DNA from: Escherichia virus TH58
Direction: 5' to 3' (one strand)
Length of the DNA stretch: 64,000 bases
Sequence record: MT446423.1
The notes below the pieces were generated by a model that was not told where the DNA came from, ran no database searches, and saw only the letters and a list, made by a program, of their open reading frames with translations. Positions 4,269-12,446 of this stretch are shown here, in pieces. Numbering within the stretch: the first letter of the stretch is position 1; each line of letters opens with the position of its first letter. Position numbers and translations under genes: made by a program.

Positions 4269-4732
4269 TGGATGCTATGTTATTTAAAATGTATTTGCTT
4301 GAAGCCAAGTCGTTTAAACATATACCAGTAGAAGATAAGACTCCACTGGAAATAGCTATTCTCATTAACAAAAGTCTAAATAACCCGCAATATATCGTAG
4401 AAGAATTCTGCAAATTGCAGATTCCTAAAGGTTACAAAATTCGTGTAGAGCGAGTTGGAGCTATTACTCGTTCTAAAAATTCTCCGTTTAGTCTTGAAGA
4501 AGGCATAAAGGACTTAGGTTATGAATCTACGGAAAATGCCGTTTATGTGAATCCTGAAAAGCGTTTAGACTTGTTTGAAAAGCGAGACCATAAGTATTTT
4601 GCCAAAAAATACTTTATTACATCATTAGCAGATTTAACCCATTTGCAACGAGCTATTTGGAAATTTTTTAAGACAAAAGGTGTAGCACTAGAAACATTCT
4701 CTGAACCTGCTAGTTTTTATCTCGGTGAATAA
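4268..4732 (+). CDS. hypothetical protein (occupies T4 mrh position)
   Basis: 154 aa ORF between soc and the Mod genes; positional only. Confidence 0.45.
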   Translation: MDAMLFKMYLLEAKSFKHIPVEDKTPLEIAILINKSLNNPQYIVEEFCKLQIPKGYKIRVERVGAITRSKNSPFSLEEGIKDLGYESTENAVYVNPEKRLDLFEKRDHKYFAKKYFITSLADLTHLQRAIWKFFKTKGVALETFSEPASFYLGE

Positions 4733-5129: not shown

Positions 5130-5711
5130 ATGACATGTCAATCTGAACTTCAAGAACGTGAATACCTAACAAATCTGATTGATAGCAAATTCACCCGCCA
5201 AGAACAAAACATTCTCTGGGCTTGCACTGATTCTAAGGAAGACCCGGATTTCCACTATGAATTAGACCATCTTGTTCGTAAGCATATGACTTCTACAGTA
5301 CCAGTAGAACTCTACCGTGGTGTAACTCCAGAAGAAGTAGAACGTCTTTCCCTTCTTTCTGTTGGATGTCATTGGTCTCCTGGACGAGTAACATCGTTCA
5401 CAACTGATTTCAGTACAGCTCGTCAATTCTCCGGGAGTTGGGAGTATCAGACGTACACTATTCTTAGTCTCAGGAATGCTCCATTCATTTTTGATTACTA
5501 CCAAAACATGATTAACATTGTACTTGCCGGAAAGAACCCTAAGCATGTTATGGAAGAAAAACGTGTTGACGTCCTAGATATGATTGAATCTGAACAAGAG
5601 TACATGGTCTCAGGTATCTCTAGATTTGAGATTGTGGAAATTGAAGACTTAGAATATGACCCTTTATCTCGATTATACAAAATCATTCATTTAAAAATGT
5701 TGAATTTTTAG
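5130..5711 (+). CDS. modB: Mod-family mono-ADP-ribosyltransferase (ModB position)
   Basis: R (LYRGV), S-x-S (FTTDFSTAR) and E-x-E (EQEYMV) motifs; GGAGG RBS; symbol assigned by T4 gene order only. Confidence 0.7.
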   Translation: MTCQSELQEREYLTNLIDSKFTRQEQNILWACTDSKEDPDFHYELDHLVRKHMTSTVPVELYRGVTPEEVERLSLLSVGCHWSPGRVTSFTTDFSTARQFSGSWEYQTYTILSLRNAPFIFDYYQNMINIVLAGKNPKHVMEEKRVDVLDMIESEQEYMVSGISRFEIVEIEDLEYDPLSRLYKIIHLKMLNF

Positions 5712-7279: not shown

Positions 7280-7591
7280 ATGGTTTATGTATATGCAATA
7301 GTTTATCGAGATATGGAAGGATTTACTGTCCCGGTTCCACTCGATGAGCATCGTCCTGCAGTATTTTTTAGAAAGGATATTGCAGATAAAGTTTTCGATA
7401 CTTTGAAAACCCAGTATAAAACAGATTTAAAAATGGGAGCTCTAAGAATGGTCGAAACTCCGCGTAAGTTCTGGTTTAATAAGCTTGAAATGAAACACAT
7501 TAAACTAGATGCGGAGACGCAAAAATTGTATCAACGAATCCTGGATACAGGCCGTATTGTTAGTATTCCAATTGCAGGGACTTTACGATGA
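7280..7591 (+). CDS. hypothetical protein (dda.1 position)
   Basis: 103 aa; stop overlaps dda start (ATGA). Confidence 0.45.
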   Translation: MVYVYAIVYRDMEGFTVPVPLDEHRPAVFFRKDIADKVFDTLKTQYKTDLKMGALRMVETPRKFWFNKLEMKHIKLDAETQKLYQRILDTGRIVSIPIAGTLR

Positions 7592-8901
7592 CATTTGATG
7601 ATTTGACTGAAGGCCAGAAAAACGCCTTCAACGTTGTTATGAACGCTATTAAAGAAAAGAAACATCATGTAACTATTAATGGGCCTGCTGGTACAGGTAA
7701 AACAACCCTTACTAGATTCATCGTTGAAGCCCTTATTTCTTCTGGAGAATCAGGTATTATTTTAGCAGCCCCTACACATGCTGCTAAAAAGGTTCTAAGC
7801 AAACTTGCGGGTCAAGAAGCATCGACTATTCATAGCATTCTTAAAATCAACCCAACTACATACGAAGAAAACGTATTGTTTGAACAGAAAAAGGTTCCCG
7901 ACTTAGCCTTGTGTCGTGTACTGTTATTTGATGAAGCGTCAATGTGCGACCGTTCTCTGTTTAAAATAATGTTAGCTAGTATCCCTAAATGGTGTACAGT
8001 AATTGGAATCGGCGACAGATGCCAGATTCGTCCGGTAGACCCAGGCGAATCAACTGCGTATCTAAGTCCTTTCTTCACTCACAAAGACTTCGTGCAATGC
8101 AACCTTACAGAAGTTAAACGTAGCAATGCACCAATTATTGATGTTGCTACTGATATTCGTAATGGCAAATGGATCTACGATAAAGTAGTTGATGGGCACG
8201 GTGTTCATGGATATACAGACCTTAAATCGTATATGATGAACTATTTTAACGTCGTTAAAACTCCTGAAGACCTTTTCGAAAATCGAATGATGGCATTCAC
8301 AAATAAGTCGGTGGACAAGTTAAATTCAATTATTCGCCGAAAACTTCTTGAAACAGAAAAACCATTTATTAAAGACGAAGTCATTGTTCTACAGGAGCCA
8401 TTTACTAAGACATATAAGCTAGATGGTAAAAATATGACCGAAATGCTTTTCAATAACGGCCAATTCGTTCGTATTCGAGATGCTGTAGAAACGTCTACAT
8501 TCGTTAAAGCACGTGGTGTTTCAGGCGAATATATGATACGATACTGGAATCTTACAGTAGAAACATATGGGGATGATGAAGAATATATCCGTGAAGATAT
8601 AAAGGTTATTTCTTCTGAAGAAGAGCTTTATAAATTTAATTTGTTTTTAGCTAAGACCGCAGAAACATACAAATTTTGGAATAAAGGTGGTAAAGCTCCA
8701 TGGAGCGAATTCTGGGATGCTAAACGTATGTTCACTAAGGTGAAGGCACTACCAGTATCAACTTTCCATAAGGCCCAGGGTATGTCTGTTGACACGGCCT
8801 TTGTTTATACACCGTGTATCCATTATGCTGATTCAGAATTAGCTAAACAGTTATTGTATGTCGGCACAACTCGTGGTCGTTTTGACGTCCATTTTATTTG
8901 A
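7588..8901 (+). CDS. dda: Dda SF1B DNA helicase
   Basis: 437 aa; MTFDDLTEGQKNAFN.. Walker A GPAGTGKT; near-colinear with T4 Dda. Confidence 0.9.
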   Translation: MTFDDLTEGQKNAFNVVMNAIKEKKHHVTINGPAGTGKTTLTRFIVEALISSGESGIILAAPTHAAKKVLSKLAGQEASTIHSILKINPTTYEENVLFEQKKVPDLALCRVLLFDEASMCDRSLFKIMLASIPKWCTVIGIGDRCQIRPVDPGESTAYLSPFFTHKDFVQCNLTEVKRSNAPIIDVATDIRNGKWIYDKVVDGHGVHGYTDLKSYMMNYFNVVKTPEDLFENRMMAFTNKSVDKLNSIIRRKLLETEKPFIKDEVIVLQEPFTKTYKLDGKNMTEMLFNNGQFVRIRDAVETSTFVKARGVSGEYMIRYWNLTVETYGDDEEYIREDIKVISSEEELYKFNLFLAKTAETYKFWNKGGKAPWSEFWDAKRMFTKVKALPVSTFHKAQGMSVDTAFVYTPCIHYADSELAKQLLYVGTTRGRFDVHFI

Positions 8902-8910
8902 GAGAAAATT

Positions 8911-9588
8911 ATGAGCACTGATGTTATTATAGATTTTGAAACATTCGGCAATACATCAAAAGCGGCTGTTATTGACCTTGCGGTTATTGCATATAATTCC
9001 GACCCTGAAGTTGTTGAATCATTTGAAGAACTTGTTCAACGAGGTAAGCGAATTAAATTTAATCTAGCTTCTCAGAAAGGGAAGCGAGTTTTCGCTAAAT
9101 CCACTATGAAATGGTGGAAAGAGCAATCGGCTGAAGCACGTAAAAACTTGGCTCCATCTGAAGACGATGTCACTACGCTTGAAGGCATTAAAATCTTTTT
9201 AGACTATTGCCGAGCTAATAAAGTTGACCAATGGAAATCACAGATGTGGTGCCGTGGTATGAGCTTTGACTTCCCGATCTTGGTCGATTTGATTCGTGAC
9301 CTCTATCGTGATGAAGGTGTTCTTGAACCGGATATTGATACTGATAAATTAGAACCGGTTAAATTCTGGGCTCAACGTGATATTCGTACGGCAATCGAAG
9401 CTTACTCGTTGACACGAGGATTAAGTATGTGTCCATTACCGATGGGTACACTAAAAGGATTCGTTGCCCATGATAGTATTCATGATTGTGCTAAAGATAT
9501 TTTGATGTTAAAATATGCTCAGCGTTATGCGCTTGGTCTTGAAGATGTCCCTGAGAATCCTGACCCGTTAAGTGTAAAACAGCGATAA
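8911..9588 (+). CDS. dexA: exonuclease A (DexA, DEDD family)
   Basis: 225 aa; IDFETFG exonuclease motif; follows dda as in T4. Confidence 0.8.
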   Translation: MSTDVIIDFETFGNTSKAAVIDLAVIAYNSDPEVVESFEELVQRGKRIKFNLASQKGKRVFAKSTMKWWKEQSAEARKNLAPSEDDVTTLEGIKIFLDYCRANKVDQWKSQMWCRGMSFDFPILVDLIRDLYRDEGVLEPDIDTDKLEPVKFWAQRDIRTAIEAYSLTRGLSMCPLPMGTLKGFVAHDSIHDCAKDILMLKYAQRYALGLEDVPENPDPLSVKQR

Positions 9589-9593
9589 AACCA

Positions 9594-9623
9594 GTTTACA
9601 ACCAAGGATGGTTGGAGTATAAT
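9594..9623 (+). promoter_or_regulatory. T4-type early promoter with spacer hairpin
   Basis: GTTTAC, spacer AACCAAGGATGGTT inverted repeat, TATAAT. Confidence 0.55.
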
Positions 9624-9653
9624 CTTTCTATCTTAACCAAACAGGAAAACATT

Positions 9654-10148
9654 ATGAACATCAATACTACGGCTACTTACATCCTGAAAGACGAAAAACA
9701 AATCAACTGGTACGGTGCTTCAGTGCGAGCTTATGAAAAGTTTTGTGAAATTTTAGGTGCCACTCAAGGTAATAGTTTCACTATTGTTAACTTCATCAAA
9801 CAAGCTGAAGGTCCTTGGTTATTCTTAGAAATTAAAAATTCATATGGTACAATTTCTACTACCGCCCTTCCAAGCACCGACTTTGAACTGTTGATTGAAG
9901 AAGCACCTGTTAAAGATGGTCTCCACTTTGATATGGATATCGCTTGTATGTACGGTACTCTGATTAAGCCTATTGAGCCTACTGATTTGTTGTGTAAAGC
10001 TGTTTCGATTCGTCGTCCGTTTGCAGGTCCAGTGAGTGGATGGGTAACTGATCAGTGGATTGAAGACGGCGTTGAACTTCTGAACGTTGTTCATGCAGGT
10101 GATTTTAGTGTAGTTCCACGTAGTGCTGTGGTTAATATCCTTAATTAA
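9654..10148 (+). CDS. hypothetical protein, paralog 1 of tandem triplet
   Basis: C-terminal module GWVTDQWIEDGVELLNVVHAGDFSVV shared with next two ORFs. Confidence 0.55.
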   Translation: MNINTTATYILKDEKQINWYGASVRAYEKFCEILGATQGNSFTIVNFIKQAEGPWLFLEIKNSYGTISTTALPSTDFELLIEEAPVKDGLHFDMDIACMYGTLIKPIEPTDLLCKAVSIRRPFAGPVSGWVTDQWIEDGVELLNVVHAGDFSVVPRSAVVNILN

Positions 10149-10150
10149 TG

Positions 10151-10180
10151 TTGTACATCCAAGGATGGATGGAGTATAGT
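10151..10180 (+). promoter_or_regulatory. T4-type early promoter with spacer hairpin
   Basis: TTGTAC, spacer CATCCAAGGATGGATG, TATAGT. Confidence 0.45.
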
Positions 10181-10210
10181 GAATTCAATTTAAACAAAGA
10201 GAGAGAAATT

Positions 10211-10708
10211 ATGATTACTATTGGTGAAATCCTTCGTGTATCTCCTGCTTCTCGTTCTAAAGCTGCAGGTCGTCTGGTTGAAGTAGCAGGGCTTCGTACT
10301 AACGGCATGGGACGTGTTAAAGAAGTTAAAGTTCGAATCATGCCCAGTTTTGGCGGACAAGAGGCCCAGTATGCTTACGTAAGTCCTAAATTCCTGGAAA
10401 AACATATACGAGTCCAATTTGCTTCAAGCGAAGAAGTTGCACCTGCACACTTTGCTTCAAACGATATCGTTGAGCCTACTACACAGTTCAAATGGGCCCT
10501 TTGCAAAGGCGTTGAATTTATAACCGATAAAGAATTTGATTACATCGACGAATACGGTTATCCAAGCAAAACTGATATTATGTGCGGCTTCATTAGTGAC
10601 CAATGGGTTGAAGATGGTAAAAAGTTATACAATATTGTATTTTTAGGTGACTTCCGAGTTGTTGAAGAATCTGAAATCACTCGCTATGTTTCTCCTCGTA
10701 AAGCTTAA
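10211..10708 (+). CDS. hypothetical protein, paralog 2 of tandem triplet
   Basis: shares N-terminal ASRSK..LVEV and C-terminal GFISDQWVEDGKKLYNIVFLGDF with paralog 3; start at 10211 aligns with paralog 3 (an ATG at 10148 is also possible). Confidence 0.55.
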   Translation: MITIGEILRVSPASRSKAAGRLVEVAGLRTNGMGRVKEVKVRIMPSFGGQEAQYAYVSPKFLEKHIRVQFASSEEVAPAHFASNDIVEPTTQFKWALCKGVEFITDKEFDYIDEYGYPSKTDIMCGFISDQWVEDGKKLYNIVFLGDFRVVEESEITRYVSPRKA

Positions 10709-10717
10709 GGAATTATT

Positions 10718-11137
10718 ATGAATATTGCAAATCTCTCTATTGGTGATTATGTACACGTATCAGATGCTTCTCGCTCTAAAGTTGTCGGGAAGTTGGTCGA
10801 AGTTCTTTCTGTGAGTGATCCGGTTTTTGGACGTAACGAAGTTAAAGTTCGTGACGCTGATGGTAACATTGGTTACGTTAAAAGCCAATTCATTGAACCA
10901 GAAGAAAAAGCGTTCAAATGGAAACTGTGCAGATCGGTTTTAGTTGTAAAAGACCATGAATTTACTATTGCTGCTGCAACTGACGGGTCTCCATGGAAAA
11001 CTAAGCAAATAGCCGGATTTATTAGCGACCGTTGGGTAGAAGATGGTGTTAAGCTTTATAACATCGTTTTCGCTGGGCAGTTCATGGTAGTTCCTGAGTT
11101 CCAAATCAAAAAATATTGTCCAGCATCTTTTGCATAA
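10718..11137 (+). CDS. hypothetical protein, paralog 3 of tandem triplet
   Basis: GFISDRWVEDGVKLYNIVFAGQF module; AAGGA RBS. Confidence 0.55.
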   Translation: MNIANLSIGDYVHVSDASRSKVVGKLVEVLSVSDPVFGRNEVKVRDADGNIGYVKSQFIEPEEKAFKWKLCRSVLVVKDHEFTIAAATDGSPWKTKQIAGFISDRWVEDGVKLYNIVFAGQFMVVPEFQIKKYCPASFA

Positions 11138-11141
11138 AGTT

Positions 11142-11170
11142 GTTTACTTCTCCTCTAGATGTGTTACTAT
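11142..11170 (+). promoter_or_regulatory. T4-type early promoter
   Basis: GTTTAC, 17-nt spacer, TACTAT, TAGACCTATC box. Confidence 0.5.
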
Positions 11171-11198
11171 AGACCTATCAAAACAAGAGGAGAATATT

Positions 11199-11426
11199 AT
11201 GAAACGTCAAATCATTAAAAATGTAACTACTGATTCAAACATCGATGAGTTTGAAGATGTTCTGTTTAATCCTGATTTAGTTGTTGTACAGAAAAACTGG
11301 ACCGAATTTTTATGCTACACCGAAGTGGTTTACGTTTACGAAAAACTCGGTGATGAAATGCCTATCTACGGTATCTTCCGTGAAATCACTGAAAACGGTA
11401 CAACTTATTGGAAGGAAACTTACTAA
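11199..11426 (+). CDS. hypothetical small protein
   Basis: ATG 11199 after GAGGAG RBS, downstream of early promoter. Confidence 0.45.
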
Positions 11427-11836
11427 TGGCTAATAAATTCCGCGTTAACTCATGGTACCAATTTATAGATAAACGTGCCCAAGAAGAGTTTATTAAAGAC
11501 CACACTGATAATGGGATTTATGCACGACGTCTTGGCATGGAACCATTTAAAGTATTAGATGTTGACCATCTTGGTCGTCCTACTAAAATTGTGACATCTA
11601 CTGGCATGGTTGGATATGCAACAGGCGGTGATATCCTTGATGAAAACTTTATCTGGCTCTCCACGAATGAAGCAGAGTTCTTTGAAGAAGTTGGAAATCC
11701 ATATCAAGCGTCTGAAGAGCAAGATTCTGGTGAACTTGACGAATTGTCTGAATTTCCTGTGATGACGATTACTATCGAAAATAATGACCAGGCATGGTCT
11801 TTGTATCAAATGTTGAAAGCACATTTTAAGGAATAA
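11426..11836 (+). CDS. hypothetical acidic protein
   Basis: ATG 11426 with GGAAGGA RBS. Confidence 0.5.
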
Positions 11837-11838
11837 TA

Positions 11839-12018
11839 ATGCCGTTATACGACTATAAATGCCAATCTGAAGATTGTGGTCATGAATATGAAAAAATTAA
11901 AAGGATTTCTGAACGAGAAAACGATGTTTGCCCTGAATGTCATCGTCTGTCTACTCGTCGGGTTTCTGCTCCTAAACATGTGAACGGTGGTTTTTACGAC
12001 TTACTTAAGAAGGGTTAA
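11839..12018 (+). CDS. small zinc-ribbon protein (CxxxxC...CxxC)
   Basis: 59 aa ORF absent from track; CQSEDC...CPEC motif; start overlaps upstream stop. Confidence 0.45.
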   Translation: MPLYDYKCQSEDCGHEYEKIKRISERENDVCPECHRLSTRRVSAPKHVNGGFYDLLKKG

Positions 12019-12020
12019 TT

Positions 12021-12446
12021 ATGGCTTTTAAAGGTTTTGAAGTTGGTAAGAAATATCGTATTATCAAAGGACAGGAAGATAATTTCTTGAGACTTCTTAA
12101 TACGACTGGTAAACGTCTTAATACTAATCTGCATACTACTTTATTGTCCAAAGATTTTATTGTGGAAAAGATGATTGGTTACGGTGTTTCTGTGATTGCT
12201 GTAGAAGCCGTAGGCGATTATGGCCGAACTATTCATAGTATGCAAGGTGATATTCTGCTTTATGGTGCAGAATTTAAATTCTTTGAAGAAGTTCCGGAAC
12301 CAGATACAGCTGTCGATTTCAAAAAAGGCTCTGTAGAATTTGTTGATGGTTCGGTGATCGTATCAGGTGATGTGGTCATTACAGTTAAAAGTGAACAAGG
12401 GCGTTTGGCTGCAATTGATGCACTTCAGAAAATTAAATTTAAATAA
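12021..12446 (+). CDS. hypothetical protein
   Basis: 141 aa ORF followed by hairpin terminator. Confidence 0.5.
   Translation: MAFKGFEVGKKYRIIKGQEDNFLRLLNTTGKRLNTNLHTTLLSKDFIVEKMIGYGVSVIAVEAVGDYGRTIHSMQGDILLYGAEFKFFEEVPEPDTAVDFKKGSVEFVDGSVIVSGDVVITVKSEQGRLAAIDALQKIKFK

Follow-up and report, generated by a model that had tools for sequence, protein, structure and literature searches.

The three consecutive small genes between dexA and cef in the DNA analysed here very probably constitute the motB.1-motB-motB-like array of an RB69-type (Mosigvirus-like) phage of the T4 group. The DNA is a stretch of 64,000 nucleotides from Escherichia virus TH58 (MT446423.1), referred to below as the window. 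Judged from its sequence, the window is from a T4-type phage, and its closest relatives over positions 9500-11300 were RB69-like (Mosigvirus) genomes and phage F2, with 93-97% nucleotide identity. The three open reading frames (ORFs), called paralogs 1, 2 and 3 here, are present exactly as the initial annotation had described them, and their placement in the variable region that runs from dexA to gene 39 was also confirmed. The genes of the locus and the modules within the three paralogs were assigned as follows.

7588-8901, plus strand: dda, which precedes dexA
8911-9588, plus strand: dexA, directly upstream of the triplet
9654-10148, plus strand: paralog 1, an intact motB.1 ortholog of 164 aa (PHROG 2333, PF17613, identity to T4 MotB.1)
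9969-10145, plus strand: C-terminal module of paralog 1, from alignments
10211-10708, plus strand: paralog 2, a motB ortholog of 165 aa with a basic KOW-like head, a disordered linker and a C-terminal barrel
10484-10705, plus strand: C-terminal module of paralog 2, from motif, model and alignment
10718-11137, plus strand: paralog 3, a second, shorter motB copy of 139 aa (PF17613; PHROG 1671, 5e-51; equivalent to RB69p010)
10910-11134, plus strand: C-terminal module of paralog 3, from motif and alignment
11199-11426, plus strand: cef, downstream of paralog 3
11426-11836, plus strand: goF, after cef
11839-12018, plus strand: a zinc-ribbon gene, after goF
12021-12446, plus strand: an ORF of 141 aa, after which topoisomerase gene 39 follows, as seen in phage F2

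The initial annotation did not recognise the named motB/motB.1 family. Its observation of a triplet was correct but is already published. Patterson-West et al. (2021, PMC7827196) aligned 102 phage homologs and described a conserved C-terminal domain common to MotB and MotB.1 and N-terminal regions that differ. They also proposed that one of the two genes stems from duplication of the other, and reported that RB69 has motB twice, motB.1 once and, in addition, a peptide of 29 aa. Because this pattern and the LSm-like head of MotB.1 are in print (PMC7827196, PMC12152347), the first observation is a correct rediscovery. As a discovery it carries little weight, since the family, its C-terminal domain, its N-termini and the copy number of RB69-type phages were all described before.

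The assignment is carried by profile matches and by full-length comparison with T4 and RB69. All three products passed the curated gathering cut-off of 25 bits for the Pfam family PF17613 (MotB, modifier of transcription): paralog 1 scored 36.8 bits, over its C-terminal part only, paralog 2 scored 125.1 and paralog 3 scored 82.8. Along its entire length, paralog 2 was 45% identical to T4 MotB, and it covered the PF17613 model from end to end. Paralog 3 was 39% identical to T4 MotB, and its counterpart in RB69, RB69p010, is annotated as MotB-like. Both proteins were collinear with T4 MotB over the full length, and both genes occupy the position of motB proper, from dexA to cef in the early rightward dda-to-39 block, where T4 motB likewise lies behind an early-type promoter. 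They also share with T4 MotB a KOW-like head and a C-terminal barrel. The window differs from T4 in having two motB copies in tandem instead of one, and its paralog 3 lacks a linker of about 26 residues, distributes charge between its domains in the opposite way, and starts 9 nt past the stop codon of paralog 2 with its own AAGGA ribosome-binding site.

Paralog 1 matched PHROG 2333 (1.5e-81) across residues 1-164 and was 45% identical to T4 MotB.1; identity to T4-type MotB.1 proteins was 45-55% end to end. It carries a MotB.1-type N-terminal domain followed by the module DPTDLLC...GWVTDQWIEDGVELLNVVHAG, the arrangement that marks the MotB.1 subfamily, and its N-terminal 100 residues gave no alignment with MotB. 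It resembles T4 MotB.1 in its predicted LSm-like head, its MotB.1-type module and its place just upstream of motB; unlike the T4 protein, it has 164 aa and an extra FDMDIACMYGTLIKP linker segment. The RB69 locus, motB.1/ORF012/motB/ORF010/motB.2 (PMC7827196), has the same gene order and the same three family members. It differs from the window in two ways: motB.1 is split by two single-base indels in the RB69 reference but is one intact gene in the window, and motB.2, present in RB69, is absent from the window. In relatives motB.2 usually lies between paralog 3 and cef; it is missing from the window and from F2. We considered whether the "fourth transcriptional regulator" annotated in phage AV111 is a fourth paralog and rejected it: this gene is motB.2, unrelated in sequence and with no Pfam match.

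Pairwise BLASTP gave E-values of 3e-10 for paralogs 1 and 2, 7e-11 for paralogs 1 and 3, and 8e-30 for paralogs 2 and 3, the last pair being 41% identical across nearly the whole length. The proposed C-terminal block is therefore significant by pairwise alignment, and its motif, G[FW][IV][ST]D[QR]W[IV]EDG..L.N[IV]V..G.F.VV, was matched by all three proteins; the segment ASRSK..G.LVEV...VKV was found in paralogs 2 and 3, as had been stated. A block of about 45 aa had been described. That it is shared holds, but its extent is better given as a near-invariant core of about 30 aa inside a domain of 55-75 aa that is predicted to form a five-strand beta-barrel. When each C-terminal segment was compared with the 64-kb window by six-frame tblastn, only the three copies appeared at E<=1e-8; a fourth copy was not found in the window, the next best match having E>1.

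Two rival explanations were refuted. The shortness of the core, about 30 aa, is the sole point in favour of a chance or compositional resemblance. That idea is refuted by the BLASTP E-values (3e-10 to 8e-30), by the lack of further matches in the window and by the Pfam gathering score that all three proteins exceed, and we regard it as virtually impossible. It is extremely unlikely, too, that the ORFs are pieces of one frameshifted gene or decaying duplicates without function, an idea that draws on the broken appearance of motB.1 in two reference genomes, as a 119-aa form in T4 and as a 132-aa ORF plus a 29-aa ORF in RB69. Those breaks are single-base indels that are missing from resequenced or related genomes. 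In the window, no ORF shares its start, Shine-Dalgarno sequence or stop with another, and each aligns end to end with full-length orthologs. Against three related phages, F2, AV111 and NBG1, dN/dS came to 0.01-0.02 in paralog 1, 0.14-0.25 in paralog 2 and 0.13-0.19 in paralog 3. Every gene of the triplet is intact and evolves under purifying selection, which refutes the broken-gene reading for the window.

The reference sequences deserve attention in their own right. The T4 reference motB.1 encodes 119 aa ("13.8 kDa") and ends in WIGRWR* through one extra G. Removing this G restored DQWIEDGVELLNVVHAGEYSVVPRSAVVAILN and an intact product of 143 aa, which is identical to a protein present on 256 contigs. 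Among annotated phages, thirteen other T4 records, together with RB55 and RB59, matched over 511 bases, versus 512 in the T4 reference; the two records that we inspected, MT984581 and T4T (HM137666), lack the extra G, and the MotB.1 that they annotate has 143 aa. The T4 motB.1 site was not found in IMG/VR by exact-pattern scans, whether with or without the extra G. In the T4 reference, the extra G is a one-base error or a variant. Kim et al. obtained their MotB.1 constructs by gene synthesis, cited NC_000866.4 coordinates for the amber constructs and reported a product of 13.8 kDa (PMC12152347). Because of the cited record and the reported mass, the truncated MotB.1 was probably the form that they tested. 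The RB69 reference has a motB.1 of 132 aa and an ORF012 of 29 aa (LKTVVELLNVVHAGDFSVVPRSAVVNILN), which together correspond to one gene with two single-base indels relative to the window. Read against the window, the "29-aa peptide" of RB69 is the out-of-frame tail of motB.1, and the split gene therefore accounts for the "Category 3 peptide" of PMC7827196.

We built AlphaFold2 models of paralogs 1 and 2 from family alignments. Both models showed two confident domains with a low-confidence linker between them. In paralog 2 (mean pLDDT 75.9) the N-terminal domain spans residues 1-65, the linker 66-91 and the C-terminal domain 92-165; in paralog 1 (mean pLDDT 70.1) the corresponding ranges are 1-86, 87-109 and 110-164. 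According to these models and the alignments, each product is predicted to consist of a variable small beta-barrel at the N-terminus and, at the C-terminus, a conserved barrel of five strands and 55-75 aa, whose conserved block begins at the end of strand 2 and takes in strands 3 and 4. Paralogs 2 and 3 are predicted to have a KOW-like head, and paralog 1 an LSm-like one. Where the initial annotation had spoken of N-terminal diversification, one domain has instead been replaced by an unrelated one, the LSm-like MotB.1 head as against the KOW-like head.

The N-terminal domain of MotB.1 was grouped with GoF and Frd.2 in a family whose fold is LSm-like (Kim et al. 2025, PMC12152347), defined by a bent five-stranded antiparallel beta-sheet that resembles Hfq/LSm or the SH3 barrel of FeoA type. 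In a Foldseek search with the paralog 1 model, relatives of MotB.1 came up, and GoF as a weak match (E 0.019). When PDB sequences were searched with a profile of the KOW-like head, the only matches were to SH3, NusG and uL24 proteins and fell below the threshold (best E 0.0039), and the same kind of search found no relatives of the C-terminal module. The KOW domains of NusG/Spt5 and the Tudor/PWWP barrels of the "Royal family" share 9-18% identity with the window proteins, a resemblance of fold without detectable sequence relation or family membership. An origin of the two barrels by internal duplication of one was rejected, the profile-profile probability between module and KOW head being 0.3%.

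The MotB C-terminal domain has been proposed to be an OB-fold DNA-binding domain, the fold that HHpred favoured (PMC7827196). An OB fold of the cold-shock type is a five-strand barrel that has its helix between strands 3 and 4 and resembles the C-terminal domain of eIF5A. In both of our models a three-residue helix instead lies between strands 4 and 5. The models suggest that the topology may be SH3-like and not OB; the accompanying fold searches used whole two-domain models and are not domain-resolved. The distribution of charge also differs among the proteins. The KOW head of paralog 2 has a pI of 10.4, paralog 1 is acidic throughout (pI 4.65), and paralog 3 shows the pattern opposite to that of paralog 2, with pI 5.7 in the N-terminal and 9.0 in the C-terminal domain. 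The invariant core of the module, D-x-W-x-E-x-G ... N-x-V, is acidic and aromatic, not basic.

The PF17613 family is small and restricted to phages. A profile made from the three modules and run against 1.84 billion representative proteins retrieved only 27 clusters at 50% identity, and most of those inspected had the layout of a KOW domain plus the C-terminal domain. In a collection of annotated phages the core of the module occurred at 1716 places in 820 records, all of them T4-group phages of enterobacteria, and a copy of the paralog 3 type was present in about 207 records. The comparison of copy number across related phages gave one to three copies; among the records listed, RB69-like phages mostly had three and T4-like phages mostly two. 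The MotB.1-type module, at 76-88% identity, was found in related phages on at least four N-terminal layouts:

layout 1, 143-169 aa: an LSm-like head
layout 2, 244-252 aa: an LSm-like head and a second domain
layout 3, 177-183 aa: the second domain alone
layout 4, 145-149 aa: a KOW head

From the common motif AEF.LF.E we read the second domain of layouts 2 and 3 as GoF-like. Given that heads have been exchanged on the same module, the N-termini differ by domain replacement and not by rapid divergence. Metagenomic chimeras were also found, in which the head of paralog 2 or that of T4 MotB is joined to the tail of paralog 3, which suggests unequal crossing-over within the conserved block. The claim of a tandem array that arose by local duplication, with a common C-terminal module and different N-termini, is supported. 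We infer that an ancestor with a KOW domain and the C-terminal domain was tandemly duplicated and that an N-terminal domain was then replaced. The array would be continually reshuffled by recombination both in the conserved C-terminal block and between repeated promoter/stem-loop cassettes, of which the following were identified.

9595-9623, plus strand: early-type promoter-like site TTTACA-17-TATAAT upstream of paralog 1 (11/12 match)
10152-10180, plus strand: promoter-like site TGTACA-17-TATAGT upstream of paralog 2 (9/12 match, weak)
11142-11201, plus strand: hybrid promoter/ribosome-binding-site cassette upstream of cef, from alignment with the AV111 cassettes that flank motB.2

The site upstream of paralog 1 contains a 6-bp stem, ACAACC/GGTTGG, between its -35 and -10 hexamers, and a promoter is annotated at the matching place in phage NBG1. 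The site upstream of paralog 2 has the same stem with a compensatory pair (ACATCC/GGATGG). An early promoter had been proposed between paralogs 1 and 2. The promoter scan alone does not favour it, because a 9/12 site is at chance level in the window (13 sites found versus 11.6 expected), but two other observations do. The site belongs to a 61-nt direct repeat (9597-9657 versus 10154-10214, 74% identity) of the 11/12 cassette at 9595-9657, a repeat that spans promoter, leader and start codon, and T4 has an 11/12 site, TTTACA-17-TATAAT, in the homologous position between its own motB.1 and motB genes.

The cassette upstream of cef contains an inverted repeat (11148-11166 and 11176-11194). In AV111, motB.2 is flanked by two similar cassettes, whereas the window and F2 have a single hybrid of both at 11142-11201. 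By this comparison the hybrid marks the junction where the motB.2 gene of most relatives is absent. Promoter-early stem-loop (PeSL) elements of T4-type phages mediate the gain and loss of the genes flanked by them (Arbiol et al. 2010, Comeau et al. 2014; PMC2839356, PMC4122927). The window cassettes have the sequence features of PeSLs, namely an early-promoter consensus, an embedded stem-loop, repetition beside variable genes and a chimeric cassette at an indel junction where a gene is present or absent. They differ in that their stems are short (6 bp), and the comparison covers two or three cassettes. We infer that the cassettes act as promoters or terminators and in recombination.

What the array does is best approached from T4 MotB, an abundant early protein that is toxic to E. 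coli and binds both unmodified and T4-modified DNA with no detectable specificity (PMC6070864, PMC7827196). When DNA is present, H-NS and StpA co-purify with it, and at proV it overrides the footprint of H-NS. It also raised the expression of 75 host genes, about one third of them in the H-NS regulon, and doubled the burst size (PMC6070864, PMC7827196). A DNA-independent contact between MotB and H-NS could not be shown (PMC7827196). The genes had been described as typical of host-takeover or anti-defence families. Host takeover is supported by homology, because T4 MotB is toxic, binds DNA and alters H-NS binding; anti-defence found no support, and the genes are under purifying selection.

With 39-45% identity to T4 MotB as the basis for transfer, early and abundant production would be expected of paralog 2 and probably of paralog 3. 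These proteins would coat DNA without sequence preference, which would alter the placement of H-NS and StpA on the host nucleoid and so lead to a better phage yield. In paralog 2, the basic KOW head would be the likeliest part to contact DNA. Paralog 3 may not behave like T4 MotB, because its charge pattern is reversed and its linker is missing, and the two motB copies may plausibly divide the work between them. Paralog 1 is unlikely to coat DNA, because the protein is acidic overall. Most likely it shares whatever the C-terminal module contacts and not bulk DNA binding, since only this module is common to it and MotB. In T4, amber and deletion mutants of motB.1 had no laboratory phenotype, and MotB.1 had little effect in an RNA reporter, the one functional assay reported (PMC12152347).

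Two other views of the function were weighed against this reading. The array could be a counter-immunity family whose N-termini diversified in an arms race with host defence systems, as its location in a variable early region might lead one to think, along with the variation from one to three copies among phages, the swapping of N-terminal domains between relatives and the presence or absence of the neighbouring motB.2 cassette among close relatives. We consider this improbable. Strong purifying selection (dN/dS 0.01-0.25 in all three genes) and the nearly invariant C-terminal block argue against an arms race; the sole characterised member acts on H-NS-bound DNA by non-specific DNA binding and has no immune-system target, and the literature that mentions motB.1 reports no defence phenotype.

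Somewhat less doubtful, though still unlikely, is the idea that the three proteins act as a set in which the C-terminal module serves for docking or oligomerisation, as a barrel of the Tudor/SH3 type, instead of being an OB-fold DNA binder. The module would then direct three different heads, two of KOW type (one basic, one near-neutral) and one that is LSm-like and acidic, to a single shared target on the host nucleoid. Alternatively, the proteins would form mixed oligomers in which the acidic MotB.1 tempers the coating of DNA by MotB. The acidic and aromatic core, the overall acidity of paralog 1 and the short helix that separates strands 4 and 5, a feature of SH3-like barrels, all fit this idea, as do the retention of the module at 76-88% identity while heads were exchanged and the partial migration of T4 MotB.1 as a dimer (PMC12152347). 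It is weakened by the use of whole two-domain models in our fold searches, whose Tudor-type matches could reflect the N-terminal domain, by the published HHpred preference for the OB fold and by the failure to show a DNA-independent contact between MotB and H-NS (PMC7827196). AlphaFold3 also gave no confident MotB.1 homomultimers (PMC12152347), though probably with the truncated sequence. If the proteins do act as a set, the published negative results on MotB.1 would carry no information, because a synthesised construct was used and the cited T4 reference misses about the last 27 residues of the module.

Of the initial interpretation, we retain duplication and, by homology with T4 MotB, host takeover. 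Beside it, the junction at 11142-11201 would offer a clean example of gene gain or loss mediated by promoter cassettes. A one-base change in the T4 reference removes half of the conserved module from the MotB.1 protein that has been studied. The intact motB.1 of the window shows the form of the full protein, which should be useful for work on the early genes of T4.

We compared motB.1, the first of the three tandem paralogs, with its counterparts in the two reference genomes:

NC_000866.4 3792-4151, minus strand: T4 reference motB.1 (119 aa, UniProt P39415), the counterpart of window 9654-10148
NC_004928 4877-5373, minus strand: RB69 motB.1 (132 aa) together with RB69p012, a 29-aa ORF

Sequence comparison placed one additional G within the T4 reference motB.1 (TGGATTGGAAGATGG). 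This base was absent from both of the resequenced T4 genomes inspected, and the remaining resequenced T4 records were all shorter than the T4 reference by one base. The intact T4 product has 143 aa and carries the complete conserved C-terminal module. Because the MotB.1 constructs of the published study were made by synthesis, with the reference sequence cited and the product given as 13.8 kDa, the truncated form of MotB.1 was probably the one tested. When compared with the window, RB69 motB.1 and RB69p012 make up one gene that two one-base indels have split. Patterson-West et al. (2021) left a 29-aa 'Category 3' peptide of RB69 unexplained; the split motB.1 gene accounts for it.

The start of paralog 2, the motB ortholog, differs among annotations (window 10148-10210). 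The F2 RefSeq annotation and the AV111 GenBank record, both from related phages, use the ATG equivalent to window 10148, giving 186 aa; this start overlaps the stop of paralog 1 and reads across the promoter-like site. The start at 10211 (165 aa) corresponds to residue 1 of T4 MotB and agrees with the annotation of a third relative, NBG1, and is therefore the likelier start.

Repeats and a junction were found within and around the paralogs:

9597-9657 and 10154-10214: direct repeat, 61 nt, 74% identity
10415-10477: short tandem repeat of 30 nt at 33-nt spacing, 73% identity, internal to paralog 2's disordered linker
11142-11201: hybrid junction at the missing motB.2, compared with AV111 4640-4700 and 5224-5238
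11148-11166 and 11176-11194: inverted repeat, 79% complementary
11678-11709 and 12279-12310: 32-nt repeat encoding FFEEV

For paralogs 1 and 2 alike, the direct repeat takes in the promoter spacer, -10 box, leader and start codon. Its two copies differ by a compensatory base pair in the 6-bp stem that lies between -35 and -10. This repeated promoter/stem arrangement is like the PeSL (promoter-early stem-loop) cassette of T4-type phages. The linker repeat units of paralog 2 encode QFASSEEVAP and HFASNDIVEP; paralog 3, the shorter motB copy, entirely lacks this repeat-bearing linker. Three proteins from metagenomic contigs (P0147, P0149 and P0151) join an N-terminal half of paralog 2 type or T4 MotB type to a C-terminal half of paralog 3 type; these chimeras resemble what unequal crossing-over of the tandem motB copies would produce.

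Most RB69-like phages carry motB.2 (174 aa), a gene that neither the window nor F2 has. In AV111 a promoter/ribosome-binding-site cassette lies on either side of motB.2, and the junction left where motB.2 is missing is a hybrid of these two, the pattern that would be expected from recombination between the cassettes. In the inverted repeat the promoter spacer pairs with the cef ribosome-binding site (AGAGGAGAA); such pairing could mask this site in read-through transcripts, and transcripts from the local promoter would keep it unpaired.

The FFEEV-encoding repeat is common to goF and a 141-aa ORF (12021-12446), and the extra middle domain of MotB.1-type proteins of 177-252 aa ends in a similar motif, AEF.LF.E. 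These likenesses suggest that the dexA-to-39 block may hold several members of an LSm-like small-barrel family.
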